Shown in pieces: positions 3,347 through 46,759 of a DNA stretch of 64,000 bases; the stretch's first letter is position 1, and every line of letters starts with the position of its first letter. A model generated the notes under the pieces. It searched no databases and had not been told where the DNA came from. It was given only the letters and a program-made list of their open reading frames with translations. Source of the stretch: Escherichia coli (GTDB lineage: Bacteria > Pseudomonadota > Gammaproteobacteria > Enterobacterales > Enterobacteriaceae); assembly GCF_050920415.1 (NCBI RefSeq), contig NZ_CP169309.1; one strand, written 5' to 3'. A program made the translations under genes and the position numbers.

Positions 3347-6103
3347 TTACCCAAGAATTTTGCTGGCTTCGCGCGCCACATTATCCATCTCGTCCAGCAG
3401 TTCCAGAAGCTCTGGCTCCAAATCTTCTTCTTTAGTACCGCTGCGTAGCTGTTGTTCAATCAGTTGGCAGAGATTCTTCATACGCGGCACACCGCTATAG
3501 CCGCAACTGCCATGCAGTTTATGAATCAAATCAACCAGGCCTTCCGGGTTTTCTCCAACCAGCTGTTCCTCAACTTTGTTGCGAACTTCAGGCAGGAAAT
3601 CGAGTAACATTTGCAGCATATCGCGCGCTAAATCGGTTTTTCCTGCTGCCTGGCGTAGTGCCAGTTGCCAGTCGAGGGTCGCATTCGGGTTCACCACAAT
3701 TTCATTGACTTCGGGGGTCACGACGCGAGAGGAAATACCGCTGCCAGGCTTGTAGCGCAACAGCAAATTATGCAATCGTTCTTCTTCAATCGGTTTCGCC
3801 AGATAATCGCTCATCCCTGCGCCAAGCAGCTTCTCTTTTTGCCCGGCCATTGCATGCGCCGTTACCGCGATAACCGGCGTTTGTTGCTGATGTGGGAGCT
3901 GGTGGATGAGTTCGCAGGCCCGAATTCCGTCCATGTCCGGCATTTGAATATCCATTAAGATCAGATCGAACGGCATCTGTTTCGCCCGTTCAACGGCCTG
4001 ATGCCCGCTATCGCAAAGCTCTACATGTTGCACCATATCTTCCAGCAATGCGCCGATAAGTTTCAGGTTAGCGGGGTTGTCATCAACCGCCATGACTGTC
4101 ATTGCCAGCTTACTTTCATCGGTTACAGGCAAAAGCGTGTTTTGTTTGTGATGACAAAATTCCGTCAGGGCAGGGAACAGGCGCGTAGGTGTTAATGGTT
4201 TCAGCAGACACGCGCCGATACCATCTTGCTTAAGTTTTTCAGCATTGACTTGTGCATGGCAAGGAAGTGCCAGCATCAGAAAATCGGTCATCGATACCGC
4301 TTTCGCTAATCGCTCATGTTGCATTGTTAGCGGCTCGCGGAAGGTCACCGCAATGCCTAATAACATCATGTCGTAATGCGCGGGAGGCAGCGCGGAGAAC
4401 GTTGGGCTATAAACCACTTCCAGCGGCGTTTCACTTAAAATATCCAGCGTGCATTGCGCTGCTGCGGAGTTTGGTTCGACATAGGCCAGGCGCTTGCCGG
4501 CGAGGCACTGGGTGGATGGCCCTTCGATAATAATGTTCGGATTCAGATCGAGATTAATGTGGAACCAGAAAGTTGAACCGCGATTCGGCTGGCTATGGAA
4601 CGAAATATCGCCGCCCATTTCATTAACCAGTTTTTGTGTAATCACCAGCCCCAGCCCGGTGCCACCATGACGGCGGGAAATACTGGCATCAGCCTGTCGG
4701 AAGGCCTGGAATAAGCGCGATTGATCGCGTTCAGGAATACCAATGCCGGTATCCCGAATCTGCACTTCAATCTGCACTTTGGTATTACTCAGCGCACGTT
4801 TTTCTACCAGAATATCAATGTTGCCATTCTCGGTGAATTTAATTGCATTCCCTACCAGGTTAGTGATGATTTGCTGTAATCGCAGTGGGTCGCCAATTAC
4901 GTTATCGGGCACGTCGCTCTTAATATTGAGCGTCAGTTCCAGCCCTTTATCGTGAGAAGAATGTGCCAGCAGGGTAACGACTTCATCCAGCGTGCTGCGT
5001 AGTGGGAATGGAATACTTTCCAGAATCAGCTTACCTGCTTCCAGTTTCGAGAAGTCGAGAACATCATTAATAATTGCCAGCAAATTATTTGCCGAACGTT
5101 CAATCGTATTCAGGTGATCGCGCTGCGTTGGCGTTAATTCTGTTTTCAGCGTCAGGCGGGTAAAGCCAATAACACCATTCAGTGGTGTACGCAGCTCGTG
5201 TGACATATTTGCCAGAAACTCGGATTTAATACGCGCCGCTTCCTGGGCGCGCTTTTTCGCCAGATCCAACTCAACGTTCTGAATTTCCATCTGCTCCAGC
5301 GTTTCACGTAGATCGGACGTCGCCTGGTCGATATTGTGCTGCATCTCTTCGTGATAAGCTGCCAGCGACATTGCCATCGAGTTGATACCGTTTTTCAGCA
5401 TATCCAGCTCGCCGAGCATAAATCCTTCCACCCGGCTGTCGAGTTGCCCGCGACGGATGCGGTCGACGGTATTCACCATGTTGCGAATCGGACCGGTTAC
5501 ATCGCGCATTAAGCGCCAGCCAAAAATAAGCGCAATACCGATACAAAACAGCATCATCACGCTGGAAATAAAGATCTCTTTATATTGCTGCAAGCGAACC
5601 GATTTAAGATCCAGCTCAAGCGCAATATATCCCAACATATTTTGACTATTTTTGGCATCGCTACTGGGCGATTCGTCGGGGGAGTAACTCTCAGAAATAA
5701 TCGGCGTGCGGAGGATCATAATATCGCCGTCACGAGTGACAGTGAGCTGGCGAGGAAACGGCACGTTGCTGCCGAGCTGCATTGATGAGGGATCAAGATG
5801 AAAATTGGAGGTGACAAAGAGTCGGTTATTTTCATCATAAACCGAAATCGCGCGAACAATATCGGAATGGCGACGATGCAGTACGCTTATTAACTGACCG
5901 ATAGATTCGCGATTTTGCAGGCTCATGCCATATTCAGTAGAAACTGCAAGCGGCTCAATAATGCTGGCTCCGGCATCTTCCAGTTGACGCTGCAAGTCGT
6001 TATAGCGATGCACAACGAAAAAGATACTCAGCAATAAACCAATAAGGACGGTCGGTGCCAGGATCAGAATCATCATGCGTGCGCGCAGGCTGTAGTTGGT
6101 CAT
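3347..6103 (-). CDS. barA: hybrid sensor histidine kinase BarA (HAMP, HisKA/HATPase, receiver, Hpt)
   Basis: 918-aa ORF; H-box SHELRTPLN, receiver [14 protein letters not shown]-terminal Hpt region. Confidence 0.95.
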
Positions 6104-18687: not shown

Positions 18688-18899
18688 GAGTTCCCCACGT
18701 CAGCGGGGATAAACCGCTATACGAAGTTATTAGGTCCGAAGAGGAGTTGAGTTCCCCACGTCAGCGGGGATAAACCGTTTACGTGTTATCGCGCACCGGC
18801 GACGGTGTGGAGTTCCCCGCGCCAGCGGGGATAAACCGATTCAGCAAATAGCGAATTTCATAAATATGATGTGTTCCCCGCGCCAGCGGGGATAAACCA
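18688..18899 (+). CRISPR. type I-E CRISPR array, 4 repeats / 3 spacers (ygcE-queE array)
   Basis: 29-bp repeats at 18688, 18749, 18810, 18871 with 32-bp spacers (period 61); repeats 1-2 are the variant GAGTTCCCCaCGtCAGCGGGGATAAACCG, repeat 3 is canonical, repeat 4 is degenerate (GtG..., terminal a). Confidence 0.9.
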
Positions 18900-19352: not shown

Positions 19353-19490
19353 ATATTCCTTGTAAAAACAGGGATAAACCGAACTAGTTAAAGTTTTTAT
19401 TATGTTCCCTGCATCAGCGGGGATAAACCGGACTTGTTATCATTTTTTAAGTTGTCGAACTTATGTTCCCCGCGCCAGCGGGGATAACCA
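19353..19490 (+). CRISPR. degenerate CRISPR remnant (2-3 decayed repeats)
   Basis: repeat-like units ending at 19381, 19430 and 19490 (atGTTCCCtGCatCAGCGGGGATAAACCG; atGTTCCCCGCGCCAGCGGGGATAACCA) with one 32-bp spacer 19431..19462. Confidence 0.6.
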
Positions 19491-19536
19491 TTCAGGTATG
19501 TTCAGGCCGGGCAGTTTCCCGCCCGGTCTTCCTCAC

Positions 19537-35757: not shown

Positions 35758-38424
35758 ATGGAACCTTTTAAATATATATGTCATTACTGGGGGAAATCCT
35801 CAAAAAGCCTGACGAAAGGAAATGATATTCATCTGTTGATTTATCATTGCCTGGATGTTGCAGCTGTTGCAGATTGCTGGTGGGATCAATCAGTCGTACT
35901 ACAAAATGCTTTTTGCCGAAATGAAATGCTATCAAAACAGAAGGTGAAAGCCTGGCTGTTATTTTTCATTGCCCTTCATGATATCGGAAAGTTTGATATA
36001 CGATTCCAATATAAATCAGCAGAAAGTTGGCTGAAATTAAATCCTGCAACGTCATCACTTAATGGTCCATCAACACAAATGTGCCGTAAATTTAATCATG
36101 GTGCAGCCGGTCTGTATTGGTTTAACCAGGATTCACTTTCAGAGCAATCTCCCGGGGATTTTTTCAGTTTTTTTGATGCCGCTCCTCATCCTTATGAGTC
36201 CTGGTTTCCTTGGGTAGAGGCCGTTACAGGACATCATGGTTTTATATTACATTCCCAGGATCAAGATAAGTCGCGTTGGGAAATGCCAGCTTCTCTGGCA
36301 TCTTATGCTGCGCAAGATAAACAGGCTCGTGAGGAGTGGATATCTGTACTCGAAGCATTATTTTTAACACCAGCCGGGTTATCTATAAACGATATACCAC
36401 CTGATTGTTCATCATTGTTAGCAGGTTTTTGCTCGCTTGCTGACTGGTTAGGTTCCTGGACCACAACGGATACCTTTCTATTCAAAGAAGATGCACCTTC
36501 AGGCATACAAGCGCTAAGAAAATATTTTCAGGATAGACAACAGGATGCGTGTCGGGTACTGGAGTTGAGTGGCCTTGTATCAAATAAGCGTAGTTATGAC
36601 GGCGTACATGCCTTACTGGACAATGGCTATCAACCAAGACAATTACAGGTGTTGGTTGATGCTCTTCCTACAGCTCCCGGGCTGACGGTGATTGAGGCAC
36701 CTACGGGATCAGGTAAAACCGAAACAGCGCTGGCCTATGCCTGGAAACTTATTGACCAACAACTTGCGGATAGTGTTATTTTTGCCCTCCCTACACAAGC
36801 TACTGCAAATGCAATGCTCAGCAGAATGGAAGCGAACGCGAGCCGTTTATTTACCTCCCCAAATCTTATTCTTGCTCATGGTAATTCACGTTTTAACCAC
36901 CTTTTTCAATCAATAAAATCACGCGCATTTACTGAGCAGGGGCAAGAAGAAGCGTGGGTTCAGTGTTGCCAATGGTTGTCACAAAGCAATAAGAAAGTGT
37001 TTCTTGGGCAAATAGGAGTTTGCACGATTGATCAGGTGTTGATATCGGTATTGCCAGTTAAACACCGCTTTATCCGTGGTTTGGGAATTGGTCGAAGTGT
37101 TTTAATTGTTGATGAAGTTCATGCTTACGACACGTATATGAACGGCTTGCTGGAGGCTGTGCTCAAGGCTCAGGCTGATGTGGGGGGGAGTGTTATTCTT
37201 CTTTCCGCAACTCTACCAATGAAACAAAAACAGAAACTTCTGGATACTTATGGTCTGCATACAGATCCAGAGGAAAATAACTCCGCATATCCACTCATTA
37301 ACTGGCGAGGTGTGAATGGTGCGCAACGTTTTGATCTGTTAGCTCATCCAGAACAACTCCCGCCCCGCTTTTCAATTCAGCTAGAACCTATTTATTTAGC
37401 TGACATGTTACCTGACCTTACGATGTTAGAGCGAATGATCGCAGCGGCAAACGCGGGTGCACAAGTCTGTCTTATTTGCAATTTGGTTGACGTTGCACAA
37501 GTATGCTACCAACGGCTAAAGGAGCTAAATAACACGCAAGTAGATATAGATTTGTTTCATGCACGCTTTACGCTGAACGATCGTCGAGAAAAAGAGAATC
37601 GTGTTATTAGCGATTTCGGAAAAAATGGGGATCGAAATGTTGGACGAATACTTGTCGCCACGCAAGTCGTGGAACAATCGCTCGACGTTGATTTTGATTG
37701 GTTAATTACCCAGCATTGTCCCGCAGATTTGCTTTTCCAACGATTGGGCCGTTTACATCGTCATCATCGCAAATATCGTCCCGCTGGTTTTGAGATTCCT
37801 GTTGCCACCATTTTGCTGCCTGATGGCGAGGGTTACGGACGACATGAGCATATTTATAGCAACGTTAGAGTCATGTGGCGGACGCAGCAACATATTGAGG
37901 AACTTAATGGAGCATCCTTATTTTTCCCTGATGCTTACCGGCAATGGCTGGATAGCATTTACGATGATGCGGAAATGGATGAGCCAGAATGGGTCGGCAA
38001 TGGCATGGATAAATTTGAAAGCGCCGAGTGTGAAAAAAGGTTCAAGGCTCGTAAGGTTCTGCAGTGGGCTGAAGAATATAGCTTGCAGGATAACGATGAA
38101 ACCATTCTTGCGGTAACGAGGGATGGGGAAATGAGCCTGCCATTATTGCCTTATGTACAAACGTCTTCAGGTAAACAACTGCTCGATGGCCAGGTCTACG
38201 AGGACCTAAGTCATGAACAGCAGTATGAGGTGTTAGCACTTAATCGCGTCAATGTACCCTTCACTTGGAAACGTAGTTTTTCTGAAGTAGTAGATGAAGA
38301 TGGGTTACTTTGGCTGGAAGGGAAACAGAATCAGGATGGATGGATCTGGCAGGGTAATAATATTGTTATTACCTACACTCGGGATGAAGGGATGACCAGA
38401 GTCATCCCTGCAAATCCCAAATAA
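35758..38424 (+). CDS. cas3: type I-E Cas3 HD nuclease / SF2 helicase
   Basis: 888-aa ORF; HD motif (LHDIGKF), Walker A APTGSGKTE, DEVH box (IVDEVHAYD). Confidence 0.96.
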   Translation: MEPFKYICHYWGKSSKSLTKGNDIHLLIYHCLDVAAVADCWWDQSVVLQNAFCRNEMLSKQKVKAWLLFFIALHDIGKFDIRFQYKSAESWLKLNPATSSLNGPSTQMCRKFNHGAAGLYWFNQDSLSEQSPGDFFSFFDAAPHPYESWFPWVEAVTGHHGFILHSQDQDKSRWEMPASLASYAAQDKQAREEWISVLEALFLTPAGLSINDIPPDCSSLLAGFCSLADWLGSWTTTDTFLFKEDAPSGIQALRKYFQDRQQDACRVLELSGLVSNKRSYDGVHALLDNGYQPRQLQVLVDALPTAPGLTVIEAPTGSGKTETALAYAWKLIDQQLADSVIFALPTQATANAMLSRMEANASRLFTSPNLILAHGNSRFNHLFQSIKSRAFTEQGQEEAWVQCCQWLSQSNKKVFLGQIGVCTIDQVLISVLPVKHRFIRGLGIGRSVLIVDEVHAYDTYMNGLLEAVLKAQADVGGSVILLSATLPMKQKQKLLDTYGLHTDPEENNSAYPLINWRGVNGAQRFDLLAHPEQLPPRFSIQLEPIYLADMLPDLTMLERMIAAANAGAQVCLICNLVDVAQVCYQRLKELNNTQVDIDLFHARFTLNDRREKENRVISDFGKNGDRNVGRILVATQVVEQSLDVDFDWLITQHCPADLLFQRLGRLHRHHRKYRPAGFEIPVATILLPDGEGYGRHEHIYSNVRVMWRTQQHIEELNGASLFFPDAYRQWLDSIYDDAEMDEPEWVGNGMDKFESAECEKRFKARKVLQWAEEYSLQDNDETILAVTRDGEMSLPLLPYVQTSSGKQLLDGQVYEDLSHEQQYEVLALNRVNVPFTWKRSFSEVVDEDGLLWLEGKQNQDGWIWQGNNIVITYTRDEGMTRVIPANPK

Positions 38425-38838
38425 CTTCGGGAATGATTGGTATCAATGACGATAACAAGACCAATAACGGTTTATCCCTACTTAAGTAGGGAAGGTGCAC
38501 AATGTACATCTTCTTTTAATTTCCCGGTATGAGATTTTATATTCACAGTATGAATATTTTATGTAATAAAATTTATGGTAATTATTATAACTAAAAATTT
38601 CTTTGATAATAAAACGAATAACTTGCAGATTTGAAATGCATGCATTATTGTCTTTAAACAATTCAACACATCTTAATATATGCATAGGTTAATTGTATTA
38701 AACCAATGAATATATTTTTGCAGTGAATGTGATTATTGAATTAATTACGCCGTATTTTTTCTTTGTTTTTACCGATAACGGAAGTGTGCCGACGTATAGA
38801 AATGCAGGAGAAATGTCGGAGCATATGAAGGAGAACAA
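38425..38838. promoter_or_regulatory. cas3-casA intergenic region holding the casA operon promoter (H-NS/LeuO-controlled in K-12)
   Basis: very AT-rich 414-bp spacer directly upstream of casA; the regulatory role is from established K-12 knowledge, not read from the sequence. Confidence 0.55.
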
Positions 38839-40834: not shown

Positions 40835-41926
40835 ATGTCTAATTTTATTAATATCCATGTCCTGATCTCTCACAGCCCTTCATGTCTGAACCGCGACGAT
40901 ATGAACATGCAGAAAGACGCTATTTTCGGCGGGAAAAGGCGAGTAAGAATTTCAAGTCAAAGCCTTAAACGTGCGATGCGTAAAAGTGATTATTACGCAC
41001 AAAATATTGGTGAATCCAGTCTCAGAACAATTCATCTTGCACAATTACGTGATGTTCTTCGGCAAAAACTTGGTGAACGTTTTGAGCAAAAAATCATCGA
41101 TAAGACATTAGCTCTGCTCTCCGGTAAATCAGTTGATGAAGCTGAAAAGATTTCTGCCGATGCGGTTACTCCCTGGGTTGTGGGAGAAATAGCCTGGTTC
41201 TGTGAGCAGGTTGCAAAAGCAGAGGCAGATAATCTGGATGATAAAAAGCTGCTCAAAATTCTTAAGGAAGATATTGCCGCTATCCGTGTGAATTTACAGC
41301 AGGGGGTTGATATTGCGCTTAGCGGAAGAATGGCAACCAGCGGCATGATGAGTGAGTTGGGAAAAGTTGATGGTGCAATGTCCATTGCGCACGCGATCAC
41401 GACCCATCAGGTTGATTCTGATATTGACTGGTTCACCGCCGTAGATGATTTACAGGAACAAGGTTCTGCACATCTGGGAACACAGGAATTTTCATCGGGT
41501 GTTTTTTATCGTTATGCCAACATTAACCTTGCTCAACTTCAGGAAAATTTAGGCGGCGCCTCCTGGGAGCAGGCTCTGGAAATTGCAACCCATGTTGTTC
41601 ATATGCTGGCAACAGAGGTCCCTGGAGCAAAACAGCGTACTTATGCCGCTTTTAACCCTGCGGAGATGGTAATGGTTAATTTCTCCGATATGCCACTTTC
41701 TATGGCAAATGCTTTTGAAAAAGCGGTGAAAGCGAAAGATGGCTTTTTGCAACCGTCTATACAGGCGTTTAATCAATATTGGGATCGCGTTGCGAATGGC
41801 TATGGTCTGAACGGAGCTGCTGCGCAATTTAGCTTGTCTGACATGGACCCAATTACTGCTCAGGTTAAACAAATGCCTACTTTAGAACAGTTAAAATCCT
41901 GGGTTCGTAATAATGGCGAGGCGTGA
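40835..41926 (+). CDS. casC: Cascade backbone subunit Cas7e
   Basis: 363-aa ORF; [22 protein letters not shown]. Confidence 0.95.
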
Positions 41927-41928
41927 AC

Positions 41929-42603
41929 ATGAGATCTTATTTGATCTTGCGGCTTGCTGGGCCAATGCAAGCCTGGGGGCTGCCGACCTTTGAAGGAACG
42001 CGACCTACCGGAAGATTTCCGACCCGAAGCGGGTTATTAGGGCTACTCGGGGCTTGTCTTGGGATCCAACGTGATGATACTTCTTCATTACAGGTGTTAT
42101 CAGAGAGTGTGCAATTTGCAGTGCGTTGCGATGAACTCATTCTTGACGATCGTCGTGTGTCTGTAACGGGGTTGCGTGATTACCATACAGTCCTTGGAGC
42201 GCGAGAAGATTACCGTGGTTTGAAAAGTCATGAAACGATTCAAACATGGCGCGAATATTTATGTGATGCCTCCTTTACCGTCGCTATCTGGTTAACACCA
42301 CAGGCAACGATGGTTATGTCAGAACTTGAAAAAGCAGTATTAAAGCCTCGGTATACACCGTATCTGGGGCGGAGGAGTTGTCCGCTAACACAACCGCTTT
42401 TTCTCGGGACATGTCAGGCGTCGGATCCTCAGAAGGCGCTATTAAATTATGAGCCCGTTGGCGGCGATATTTATAGTGAGGAATCAGTTGACGGGCATCA
42501 TTTAAAATTTACGGTGCGCGACGAACCGATGATCACCTTACCTCGACAATTTGCTTCCCGGGAATGGTATGTGATTAAAGGAGGTATGGATGTATCTCAG
42601 TAA
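41929..42603 (+). CDS. casD: Cascade subunit Cas5e
   Basis: ORF 41923..42603; start taken at MRSYLILRLAGPMQAWG. Confidence 0.92.
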   Translation: MRSYLILRLAGPMQAWGLPTFEGTRPTGRFPTRSGLLGLLGACLGIQRDDTSSLQVLSESVQFAVRCDELILDDRRVSVTGLRDYHTVLGAREDYRGLKSHETIQTWREYLCDASFTVAIWLTPQATMVMSELEKAVLKPRYTPYLGRRSCPLTQPLFLGTCQASDPQKALLNYEPVGGDIYSEESVDGHHLKFTVRDEPMITLPRQFASREWYVIKGGMDVSQ

Positions 42604-43189
42604 AATCATCATTGCCAGGGCCTGTAGCAGGGATCTTTACCAACTTCACCAGGGATTATGGCATTTATTTCCAAATAGACCAGATGCTGCTCGTGATTTT
42701 CTTTTTCATGTTGAGAAGCGAAACACACCAGAAGGCTGTCATGTTTTATTGCAGTCAGCGCAAATGCCTGTTTCAACTGCCGTTGCGACAGTCATTAAAA
42801 CTAAACAGGTTGAATTTCAACTTCAGGTTGGTGTTCCACTCTATTTTCGGCTTCGGGCAAATCCGATCAAAACTATTCTCGACAATCAAAAGCGTCTGGA
42901 CAGTAAAGGGAATATTAAACGCTGTCGGGTTCCGTTAATAAAAGAAGCAGAACAAATCGCGTGGTTGCAACGTAAATTGGGCAATGCGGCGCGCGTTGAA
43001 GATGTGCATCCCATATCGGAACGGCCACAGTATTTTTCTGGGGAAGGTAAAAATGGAAAAATCCAAACGGTTTGCTTTGAAGGTGTGCTCACCGTCAATG
43101 ACGCATCAGCGTTAATGGATCTTATACAGCAAGGTATTGGGCCAGCCAAATCGATGGGATGTGGTTTGCTATCTTTGGCTCCACTGTGA
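42590..43189 (+). CDS. casE: Cas6e crRNA endoribonuclease
   Basis: 199-aa ORF; MYLSKIIIARA... Confidence 0.95.
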   Translation: MYLSKIIIARACSRDLYQLHQGLWHLFPNRPDAARDFLFHVEKRNTPEGCHVLLQSAQMPVSTAVATVIKTKQVEFQLQVGVPLYFRLRANPIKTILDNQKRLDSKGNIKRCRVPLIKEAEQIAWLQRKLGNAARVEDVHPISERPQYFSGEGKNGKIQTVCFEGVLTVNDASALMDLIQQGIGPAKSMGCGLLSLAPL

Positions 43190-43204: not shown

Positions 43205-44408
<1,204 letters not shown>

Positions 44409-44513
44409 AAACAAAGAATTAGCTGATCTTTAATAATAAGGAAATGTTACATTAAGGTTGGTGGGTTGTTTTTATGGGAAAAAATGCTTTAAGAACAAAT
44501 GTATACTTTGAGA
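44409..44513 (+). promoter_or_regulatory. CRISPR leader
   Basis: AT-rich about 105 bp between the cas2 stop and the first repeat. Confidence 0.7.
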
Positions 44514-45701
44514 GAGTTCCCCGCGCCAGCGGGGATAAACCGCTCGCGTATACTCTCTGCCAACGTCTCCAGATGAGTTCCCCGCGCCAGCGGGGATAAA
44601 CCGGCGGGATTATCGGCACTGACGTCGGCGCTGTGGAGTTCCCCGCGCCAGCGGGGATAAACCGGGTCGCTTCCATATATGAACCTTGAGGATTAGGAGT
44701 TCCCCGCGCCAGCGGGGATAAACCGGTTCCATGCACTGCCCGCAGTGTCAGCCGTACGAGTTCCCCGCGCCAGCGGGGATAAACCGGTAAATCATACGTT
44801 GGCATCAGTATTTTTCTCGAGTTCCCCGCGCCAGCGGGGATAAACCGACTCCGCGCCATTTGAGAATTCTCAGTTCTGCGAGTTCCCCGCGCCAGCGGGG
44901 ATAAACCGCTACTGCTGTCAGACGGCAGGGCAAAACAGCGGAGTTCCCCGCGCCAGCGGGGATAAACCGGACGTGCGGATGCTGTTTCTGGTTTTACCTC
45001 CGAGTTCCCCGCGCCAGCGGGGATAAACCGTTTTTTCTCAGCGTCTGGCAGAGCTAATCGCCGAGTTCCCCGCGCCAGCGGGGATAAACCGGTGTCAAAT
45101 TTCATGTAATTGATGATCCAGCTGAGTTCCCCGCGCCAGCGGGGATAAACCGGGTATTTCTCGTTAACACGGTCGTATCAAAACGAGTTCCCCGCGCCAG
45201 CGGGGATAAACCGAGGGGTTGCAACCATAGCCCTTAGTTGATTGCGAGTTCCCCGCGCCAGCGGGGATAAACCGCCAGTGGATTTTAATAAACTCTCCAG
45301 CGAGCAGAGTTCCCCGCGCCAGCGGGGATAAACCGTTCGCCACGTCAGGCGTGATTTCCTGCACTGAGAGTTCCCCGCGCCAGCGGGGATAAACAGGGCG
45401 CGTCTGCGCCCGCTAGGACTCGTGTCAAGAGTTCCCCGCGCCAGCGGGGATAAACCGGGAGTTCAGACATAGGTGGAATGATGGACTACGAGTTCCCCGC
45501 GTTAGCGGGGATAAACCGCCCGGTAGCCAGGTTTGCAACGCCTGAACCGAGAGTTCCCCGCGCCAGCAGGGATAAATCGGCAACGACGGTGAGATTTCAC
45601 GCCTGACGCTGGTGTTCCCCGCATCAGCGGGGATAAACCGGGCGCACTGGATGCGATGATGGATATCACTTAGAATTCCCCGCCCCTGCGGTAGAACTCC
45701 C
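44514..45701 (+). CRISPR. type I-E CRISPR array, 20 repeats / 19 spacers
   Basis: 29-bp repeat GAGTTCCCCGCGCCAGCGGGGATAAACCG at 44514 and every 61 bp to 45673; 32-bp spacers; variants in repeats 15 (AAACaG), 17 (GCGttAGC), 18, 19 and a degenerate terminal repeat. Confidence 0.97.
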
Positions 45702-45721
45702 AGCTCCCATTTTCAACCCCA

Positions 45722-46759
45722 TCAAGACGCCTTCGCCAGTTCCTTCACTAGCGGTAGCATTATCCGCATAACGTCACGGCAGCGACGTTCTATTCTTCCA
45801 GGAAGCGCCTTATCAATATGCTGTTGATTATCAAGCCTTACATCATGCCAGCTATTTCCCGCCGGGAAGGCCGGTGTTTTTGCGCGTTGCTGATAACCAT
45901 CCTTATTTCCAAGATTCCAGTTGGTCGCCTCCACCGAAAGTACCGCAATACCGGCTTTGTCGAAAACTTCTGCATCGTTACAACACCCAGTGCCTTTCGG
46001 ATAGTTTTTATTCAAACCTGGATTTGTTGTCGCTGCAATCCCATGATTATGCGCAATTGCCAGCGCTCGATCACGGGTTAATTTCCTGACAGCCTCTGGT
46101 GTATTTACACCACTATTAAAATACAATTTATCGCCAACAATTAAGTTATCGAGATTAATCACCAGCAGCGTATTTTTCTTTTCAGTATCGCTCATGCGCT
46201 TGAGTAAATTCTCAGCGCCTAATTTCCCTTCTTCTTCTCCACTGGTTGCCACAAAACGAATACCATACTCGGTAGGCGTATTTTTCAGACGTTCAGCCAG
46301 TTCCAGCATGACACCTAAACCTGCGGCGTTATCATCCATTCCTTGTAATGTCAGCCCGCCGAGATTGGCATCGGCGTCGGCATCGCTCAGTGGAGCGTAC
46401 GTATCAAGATGCGCCATAATAATGATCTGCTGCGGCGCTTTGCCTTCATGAGCGGCAATCACCGTACTTCCCGTCACGTTGTGCCAGTTTTTGCGGTTAT
46501 CGCGGGCGGTGTAAATATATCGGCTATTAAATGTCCGAATATCACTGCGATAACCCATCTGTTGAAACTGTTGGCGAATATAATCGGCAGATAACATTTC
46601 TGCAGGAGTTCCGGTCATGCGTCCCGGAAAGAAAGTAGCAATATGTCGTGCCTGTGTATTAGCAAAATCACCAGGTTTAGGTGACGAGGCGTGTACGGGG
46701 AGAATAAAGCATACGCCGAGCGCCAGGGCAGCGGTACGGTGGCGCAATGCGGAAAACAT
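45722..46759 (-). CDS. iap: alkaline phosphatase isozyme conversion aminopeptidase
   Basis: 345-aa ORF with signal peptide and M28-type peptidase region; located between the CRISPR array and cysD. Confidence 0.9.
   Translation of the reverse strand: MFSALRHRTAALALGVCFILPVHASSPKPGDFANTQARHIATFFPGRMTGTPAEMLSADYIRQQFQQMGYRSDIRTFNSRYIYTARDNRKNWHNVTGSTVIAAHEGKAPQQIIIMAHLDTYAPLSDADADANLGGLTLQGMDDNAAGLGVMLELAERLKNTPTEYGIRFVATSGEEEGKLGAENLLKRMSDTEKKNTLLVINLDNLIVGDKLYFNSGVNTPEAVRKLTRDRALAIAHNHGIAATTNPGLNKNYPKGTGCCNDAEVFDKAGIAVLSVEATNWNLGNKDGYQQRAKTPAFPAGNSWHDVRLDNQQHIDKALPGRIERRCRDVMRIMLPLVKELAKAS

Follow-up and report, generated by a model that had tools for sequence, protein, structure and literature searches.

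A 19-spacer CRISPR1 array beside a complete type I-E cas operon in Escherichia coli

The locus among the type I-E loci of E. coli

The CRISPR I (CRISPR2.1) array of E. coli K-12 is located between cas2 and iap, and the type I-E operon of this strain is silenced by H-NS, a silencing that is relieved by LeuO. The O157-type variant of the system ('CRISPR-A' duplicons and cas-EO in the nomenclature of PMC3737337), of which strain 2014C-3338 is an example, belongs to the same subtype, occupies the same site by iap and likewise ends in an anchor spacer of this kind. The array described here lies in a window of 64,000 nucleotides, the whole stretch of E. coli DNA that was analysed. It is almost certainly a canonical E. 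coli type I-E CRISPR1 (CRISPR2.1) array, with a leader of the K-12 type and a complete cas operon; the identification is as secure as sequence allows, and nothing contradicts it. In a survey of natural CRISPR1 arrays (n=1,048), the number of spacers ranges from 2 to 32 (PMC10910852), and the 19 spacers found here fall inside the range given there.

The locus shares with that of K-12 the repeat consensus, the 61-nt period and the site between cas2 and iap, as well as the order of the cas genes, the lengths of their products and 104 of 105 leader nucleotides. The K-12 array is shorter, as the earlier note had said, with 13 spacers in the K-12-type genome against 19 here, and its spacers 1-9 have nothing in common with spacers 1-15 of the present array. 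In the O157-type variant of 2014C-3338 the repeats start with GTGTT, whereas those of the present array start with GAGTT, the cas1 and cas2 alleles and the leader are different, and the anchor spacer is the only spacer in common. The site between cas2 and iap is annotated alike in K-12 and in E. coli MFDS1022581 (two RefSeq genomes), and with cysH upstream of cas3 and iap beyond the array the layout is that annotated in RefSeq E. coli genomes.

The closest relative is MFDS1022581 (NZ_CP169399.1), a South Korean isolate from animal-source food. Its cas operon and leader are identical to those in the window (9114 of 9114 nt, while the next best genomes reach 97.5%), and so are the flanks, over 1500 of 1500 nt on either side of the array. 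Its array has 14 of the spacers with their order unchanged, and also the repeat 15 that ends in CAG, but it is without repeat-spacer units 4-8 (305 bp). Sharing of spacers was judged with spacer-only queries against 5,426 complete RefSeq E. coli genomes. These replaced megablast searches with the whole array, or with spacers 4-8 and their repeats, in which in-register repeat alignments dominate the ranking. In the spacer-only searches, spacers 1-15 occur within a CRISPR array in one other genome of the 5,426, that of MFDS1022581, so that the spacer content, which the earlier note had called strain-specific, is specific to a lineage as far as these 15 spacers are concerned. The exact 19-spacer allele is absent among the 5,426 genomes, and it is a trivial variant of the MFDS1022581 allele.

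The array is cas-proximal, with cas3-cse1-cse2-cas7-cas5-cas6e-cas1-cas2 directly upstream. All eight genes, which run in that order on one strand, have full-length matches to NCBIfam type I-E models above the curated cut-offs (Table 1). Their products have the same lengths as in K-12, contain no internal stops and are 95.7-98.7% identical in amino acid sequence to those of a K-12-type genome. The residues that we take to be catalytic in K-12 are H74, D75, K320 and D452 in Cas3, E141, H208 and D221 in Cas1, and H20 in Cas6e, and every one of them is unchanged here. The earlier description of the genes as intact therefore holds for their length, their family matches, their reading frames and the catalytic residues that were checked.

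Table 1. Positions of the main features of the locus in the window
Feature	Coordinates	Strand	Evidence and remarks
cas3, 888 aa, helicase-nuclease	35758..38424	+	NF007248, 1612.8 bits, residues 1-882; 96.7% aa identity to K-12
cas3-cse1 intergenic region	38425..38838	+	408/414 nt identical to K-12 (98.6%, six differences)
cse1/casA, 502 aa	38839..40347	+	NF007247, 900.3 bits, full length; 97.6% aa identity to K-12
cse2/casB, 160 aa	40340..40822	+	TIGR02548, 57 bits (cut-off 28.5); 95.7% aa identity to K-12
cas7/casC, 363 aa	40835..41926	+	TIGR01869, 425.6 bits; 98.1% aa identity to K-12
cas5/casD, 224 aa from the K-12 ATG (ORF opens with GTG at 41923)	41929..42603	+	TIGR01868, 277.5 bits; 96.4% aa identity to K-12
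cas6e/casE, 199 aa, pre-crRNA endoribonuclease	42590..43189	+	TIGR01907, 264.5 bits; 96.0% aa identity to K-12
cas1e, 305 aa, integrase	43205..44122	+	TIGR03638, 375.7 bits; 98.7% aa identity to K-12
cas2e, 94 aa	44124..44408	+	TIGR01873, 142.9 bits; 97.9% aa identity to K-12
AT-rich leader, K-12 type	44409..44513	+	104/105 nt identical to K-12
CRISPR array	44514..45701	+	19 spacers (32 nt each) between 20 repeats (29 nt each), 61-nt period
Five repeat-spacer units (spacers 4-8) missing in MFDS1022581	44697..45001	+	MFDS1022581 array consists of spacers 1-3, then 9-19
Spacer 4	44726..44757	+	Prophage baseplate J gene, strain 40EC, 31/32, AAG; phrog_6, baseplate wedge subunit
Spacer 8	44970..45001	+	738-aa exonuclease-family gene, EC958 (ST131) prophage adjoining tRNA-Leu, 32/32, AAG; phrog_2489, exonuclease
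Spacer 11	45153..45184	+	Lambdoid prophage nin region, STEC384 and STEC379, 32/32, GCG flank (not a canonical PAM); phrog_5215
Repeat 15, ending in CAG, not CCG	45368..45396	+	Spacer 15 protospacer in N1420 also preceded by CAG
Spacer 15	45397..45428	+	P2-like replication endonuclease (gpA) gene, E. coli N1420, 32/32, CAG; phrog_91
Ancestral distal block, repeats 16-20 and spacers 16-19	45429..45701	+	Same four spacers and near-identical variant repeats at the K-12 array end
iap, bordering the distal array end	45722..46759	-	NF007568, 702.7 bits, full length

By analogy with type I-E of K-12, the leader would drive transcription of the array, and Cas6e would release crRNAs of 61 nt by cleaving every repeat at the hairpin base. 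These would be loaded into Cascade, made up of Cse1, Cse2, Cas7, Cas5 and Cas6e, which would bind protospacers with an AAG-type PAM and recruit Cas3 for degradation of the DNA. Cas1-Cas2 would insert new spacers at the leader end. The region between cas3 and cse1 presumably corresponds to the place where K-12 has Pcas, the promoter that H-NS silences, the role of the region as a promoter here being taken from the K-12 literature. Since this region is 98.6% identical to that of K-12, H-NS probably keeps the operon silent under laboratory conditions here as it does in K-12. The suggestion of the earlier note that the locus may be competent if it were de-repressed has its support in this intergenic identity and in the 104 of 105 leader positions shared with K-12.

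The sole difference between this leader and that of K-12 is a G in place of T at 44510, at position -4 from the first repeat, and it is common to MFDS1022581. A 20-nt direct repeat (TTAAGGTTGGTG...), which is present in K-12 too, has one copy in the 3' end of cas2 (44379-44398) and another in the leader (44452-44471); the copies are 73 nt apart and 85% identical.

Two further small arrays of the same repeat family are located far from the cas genes, one with four repeats and three spacers (18688-18899), the other with two degenerate repeats and one spacer (19402-19491). In a scan of the whole 64-kb window, copies of the repeat with at most eight mismatches are confined to these two places and the main array. 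The spacer nearest the leader (18717-18748) is a match to the P1/P7 phage lox recombination site, covering the right inverted repeat and its flank. Three P1-like records match it at 33/33 and the P1 and P7 references at 32/33, and the PAM is ATG. An isolated type I-E-like repeat of 33 nt, matched at 92% by three of the query repeats, is located at 41833-41865 of a Salmonella plasmid (NZ_KP763470.1, 107,679 bp).

Repeats and the ancestral distal end

The repeat starts run from 44514 to the last repeat at 45673-45701, and all 19 intervals between them are exactly 61 nt. The earlier note, which reported 20 repeats and 19 spacers at a strict 61-bp period over 44514-45701, was correct in both its coordinates and its description. 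The repeat consensus, which is palindromic, is GAGTTCCCCGCGCCAGCGGGGATAAACCG. Fifteen of the 20 repeats match it with no mismatches: the first 14, which had been called canonical, and repeat 16 (R16) as well. A chance origin for 15 identical 29-mers at a fixed spacing is impossible. The substitutions that had been said to grow towards the distal end do so, in the order 1, 2, 2, 3 and 10, with C28A in R15, CC to TT in the loop of R17, G18A and C27T in R18, A2T, G12A and C13T in R19, and a largely degenerate R20. One further step of 61 nt, to 45734, meets unrelated sequence with 23 mismatches in 29 positions, which places the end of the array at R20.

Tandem Repeats Finder recovers only part of the array and is uninformative here, because the spacers hold the identity between units near 70%. 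No Rfam family matches the region 44300-45900 at the gathering thresholds. An ORF of 217 aa on the minus strand (44452-45105) spans the first ten repeat-spacer units, and it was rejected as a gene since it is an artefact of the repeats.

In type I-E systems the 3' hairpin of a crRNA is supplied by the downstream repeat. The canonical repeat, R15 and R17 are all predicted to form one and the same hairpin of 7 bp, with an energy of -15.1 kcal/mol, and it is retained in R19 at -14.4 kcal/mol. The two exceptions among the 20 repeats are R18, where a C-A mismatch within the stem weakens the predicted hairpin to -9.7 kcal/mol, and R20, where the predicted stem is 4 bp (-6.4 kcal/mol); the 7-bp hairpin is thus predicted in the other 18. 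Since the stems of R18 and R20 are predicted to be weakened, poor maturation may be likeliest for the crRNAs of spacers 17 and 19.

The distal decay of the repeats is real, but it is inherited from the ancestral array end of the species and is common to K-12. The last four spacers of K-12 are spacers 16-19 of the present array, and they are accompanied there by the TT-loop, G18A, GTGTT and degenerate terminal repeats. Decay as a feature of this strain was rejected on these grounds, the spacers being the same and the variant repeats nearly the same. Relative to K-12, R18 and R19 each have one extra substitution here (C27T and G12A, respectively), while the terminal repeat, which is degenerate in both, differs by a 1-nt indel, with one C fewer here. 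Read in this way, the decay is old and shared, and this lineage would have added to it only R18 C27T, R19 G12A and the 1-nt deletion in R20.

A spacer-only query with spacers 16-19 finds matches in 4,241 of the 5,426 complete E. coli genomes (78%), at 4,244 places, that is, three places beyond one per genome. Most of the rows sampled from this search are annotated as CRISPR and match spacer 19 only. The terminal spacer 19 is found in the 4,241 genomes, and at least 378 of the 5,426 hold 80% or more of spacers 16-19.

Spacer sources and possible native activity

Prophage matches were found for four of the 19 spacers (4, 8, 11 and 15), and each of the proteins targeted falls in a PHROG phage family. 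The flanks of the traced protospacers are AAG for spacers 4 and 8, GCG for spacer 11 and CAG for spacer 15. The single mismatch of spacer 4 is at position 7, in the seed, and six further genomes match this spacer with two mismatches. The protospacer of spacer 8 is present in about 440-450 of the 5,426 genomes (~8%), a count estimated by comparing the 483 records that match when the query includes spacer 8 with the 35 that match when it does not; in IMG/VR this spacer matches 12 contigs, all 12 of them with AAG. A full-text literature search with the spacer 8 sequence gave no occurrence. Spacer 15 is matched at 29-30 of 32 positions in about 20 further E. coli genomes and at 30 of 32 in an Enterobacter hormaechei record of PLSDB.

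A spacer of 2014C-3338 (1502-1533 of record L008, compared with 6004-6035 of record L006) was taken from the prophage baseplate J gene that spacer 4 also matches, at an offset of 8 nt and with an AGG PAM, and this points to separate acquisitions from a single phage family. In STEC384 (NZ_CP091029.1), four to five separate places match the spacer set, and this suggests that several resident lambdoid prophages of that strain hold the spacer 11 protospacer or weaker matches to other spacers.

For the remaining 15 of the 19 spacers no source was found in the collections searched. The whole array gave no spacer-specific match to isolated phages in INPHARED (50,697 records) at E values up to 5; the matches that did appear were rejected as CRISPR-bearing records filed as phages and as chance partial matches in Corynebacterium and Gordonia phages. 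With the same query and E limit, PLSDB (72,556 plasmid records) gave 60 matching records, made up of CRISPR-bearing records, chance matches and one spacer match, that of spacer 15. This Enterobacter record was rejected as a plasmid target. It holds cpxAR beside a fragment of a 'bacteriophage replication protein A', and since cpxAR is present it is apparently chromosomal DNA with a P2-like remnant. Spacers 1, 2, 3, 5, 6 and 7, searched in IMG/VR with N at every sixth position, gave no matches, and these negatives are meaningful because the same kind of pattern found 12 contigs for spacer 8. Spacers 1-3, at the leader end, have no match in INPHARED, PLSDB, the 5,426 E. coli genomes or IMG/VR, and nothing convincing was found for spacers 9, 10, 12, 13 and 14 in the three BLAST collections (phage, plasmid and E. 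coli genomes). No self-target was found in the window for any spacer at up to nine mismatches. In MFDS1022581, spacers 1-15 match the array only, at one place in the record.

The earlier note had made the interest of the array depend on what the spacers match in mobile elements and reference strains, and the outcome is mixed: four of the 19 spacers are common to K-12, which counts against it, and four match prophages, which counts in its favour. According to PMC10910852, E. coli CRISPR1 arrays target prophages almost exclusively, and a mixed outcome of this kind is the pattern expected from published surveys.

The array and the cas genes may be an evolutionary fossil, intact yet never used for natural immunity, with spacers that are relics of ancient encounters. 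This is a possible but doubtful account. Spacers 1-15 are found in just one other complete genome, which differs by loss of spacers and not by gain, and spacers 1-3, which lie next to the leader, lack a match in all four collections. In the literature, E. coli arrays are described as stable over years (PMC10910852) and as silenced in the laboratory (PMC2886076), and both reports favour disuse. However, the eight cas genes are intact, with 96-99% identity to the functional K-12 proteins, and spacer 8 perfectly matches, with the correct PAM, a circulating prophage that is carried by ~8% of genomes and is absent from the closest relative, MFDS1022581.

The opposite account, that the system is natively active and serves chiefly as an anti-prophage barrier against new temperate phages, as Dion et al. 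(2024) proposed for E. coli, is unlikely on present evidence. All four traced spacers match genes of temperate phages that reside in E. coli chromosomes, with no match of theirs to an isolated virulent phage, MFDS1022581 is without any protospacer for spacers 1-15, and an unrelated lineage has independently gained a spacer that overlaps spacer 4 in the baseplate gene; arrays directed against prophages are also described in the survey PMC10910852. Yet activity is read here from DNA sequence, and the absence of the prophage from one relative is a weak argument since ~92% of genomes are without the spacer 8 prophage anyway. Two of the four protospacers, moreover, have non-canonical flanks (GCG and CAG).

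The reading preferred here is that of a canonical array that records past contact with temperate phages. The four distal spacers and the decayed repeats represent the old, species-wide end of the array. Spacers 1-15 were added in this lineage, and MFDS1022581, its one close relative in the set of complete genomes, later lost units 4-8.

Probable loss of units 4-8 and a possible origin of the variant repeat 15

Because new spacers are inserted next to the leader, and because both strains have spacers 1-3, the difference between the two arrays is read as a loss of units 4-8 in MFDS1022581. The simplest account of this loss would be recombination between repeats. Collapse of the repetitive array during assembly of one of the two records, so that the five-spacer difference would be no biology at all, is a very improbable alternative: apart from these units the two loci do not differ over more than 12 kb, and the arrays differ in length by a whole number of 61-nt units, but the MFDS1022581 assembly is a complete-level RefSeq record, and CRISPR arrays commonly change by loss of internal units through repeat recombination.

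As a result of the substitution in R15, 35 consecutive bases of the array (45394-45428) are identical to phage DNA, namely the N1420 protospacer and the CAG that precedes it. If one base of a 29-nt repeat were substituted at random, the change would give that base at position 28 in about 1 of 87 cases. According to Díez-Villaseñor et al. (PMC3737337), the true duplicon is 28 nt long, its last base is derived from the PAM and spacers are 33-34 nt; by the ruler mechanism that they describe, off-register integration trims the duplicon while the 61-nt period is kept. R15 looks like the product of such an event, in which the AG nucleotides on the PAM side of a CAG-flanked protospacer would have been carried in and the duplicon trimmed to 27 nt. 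An integration scar is thus more likely than decay as the origin of this substitution, a judgement that concerns one case. Native anti-prophage activity of the type I-E system in this lineage and an off-register scar in R15 are two modest and tentative proposals. If the second is true, R15 would be a natural example of the ruler mechanism known from reporter assays.

Nothing in this locus departs from the known CRISPR loci of E. coli; the finding is real, correctly read and ordinary, and its importance beyond the description of the strain is small. The array is a usable typing marker, which ties the window to the MFDS1022581 lineage, with a five-unit deletion separating the two. The traced spacers provide one more example of an E. 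coli CRISPR memory that is aimed at the temperate phages of E. coli, as opposed to plasmids or virulent phages. Were the system shown to be active, spacer 8 would predict that this strain resists lysogenisation by a prophage family often carried by ST131 and other lineages, and native activity would thereby exclude a prophage that is found in ~8% of E. coli, ST131 included.
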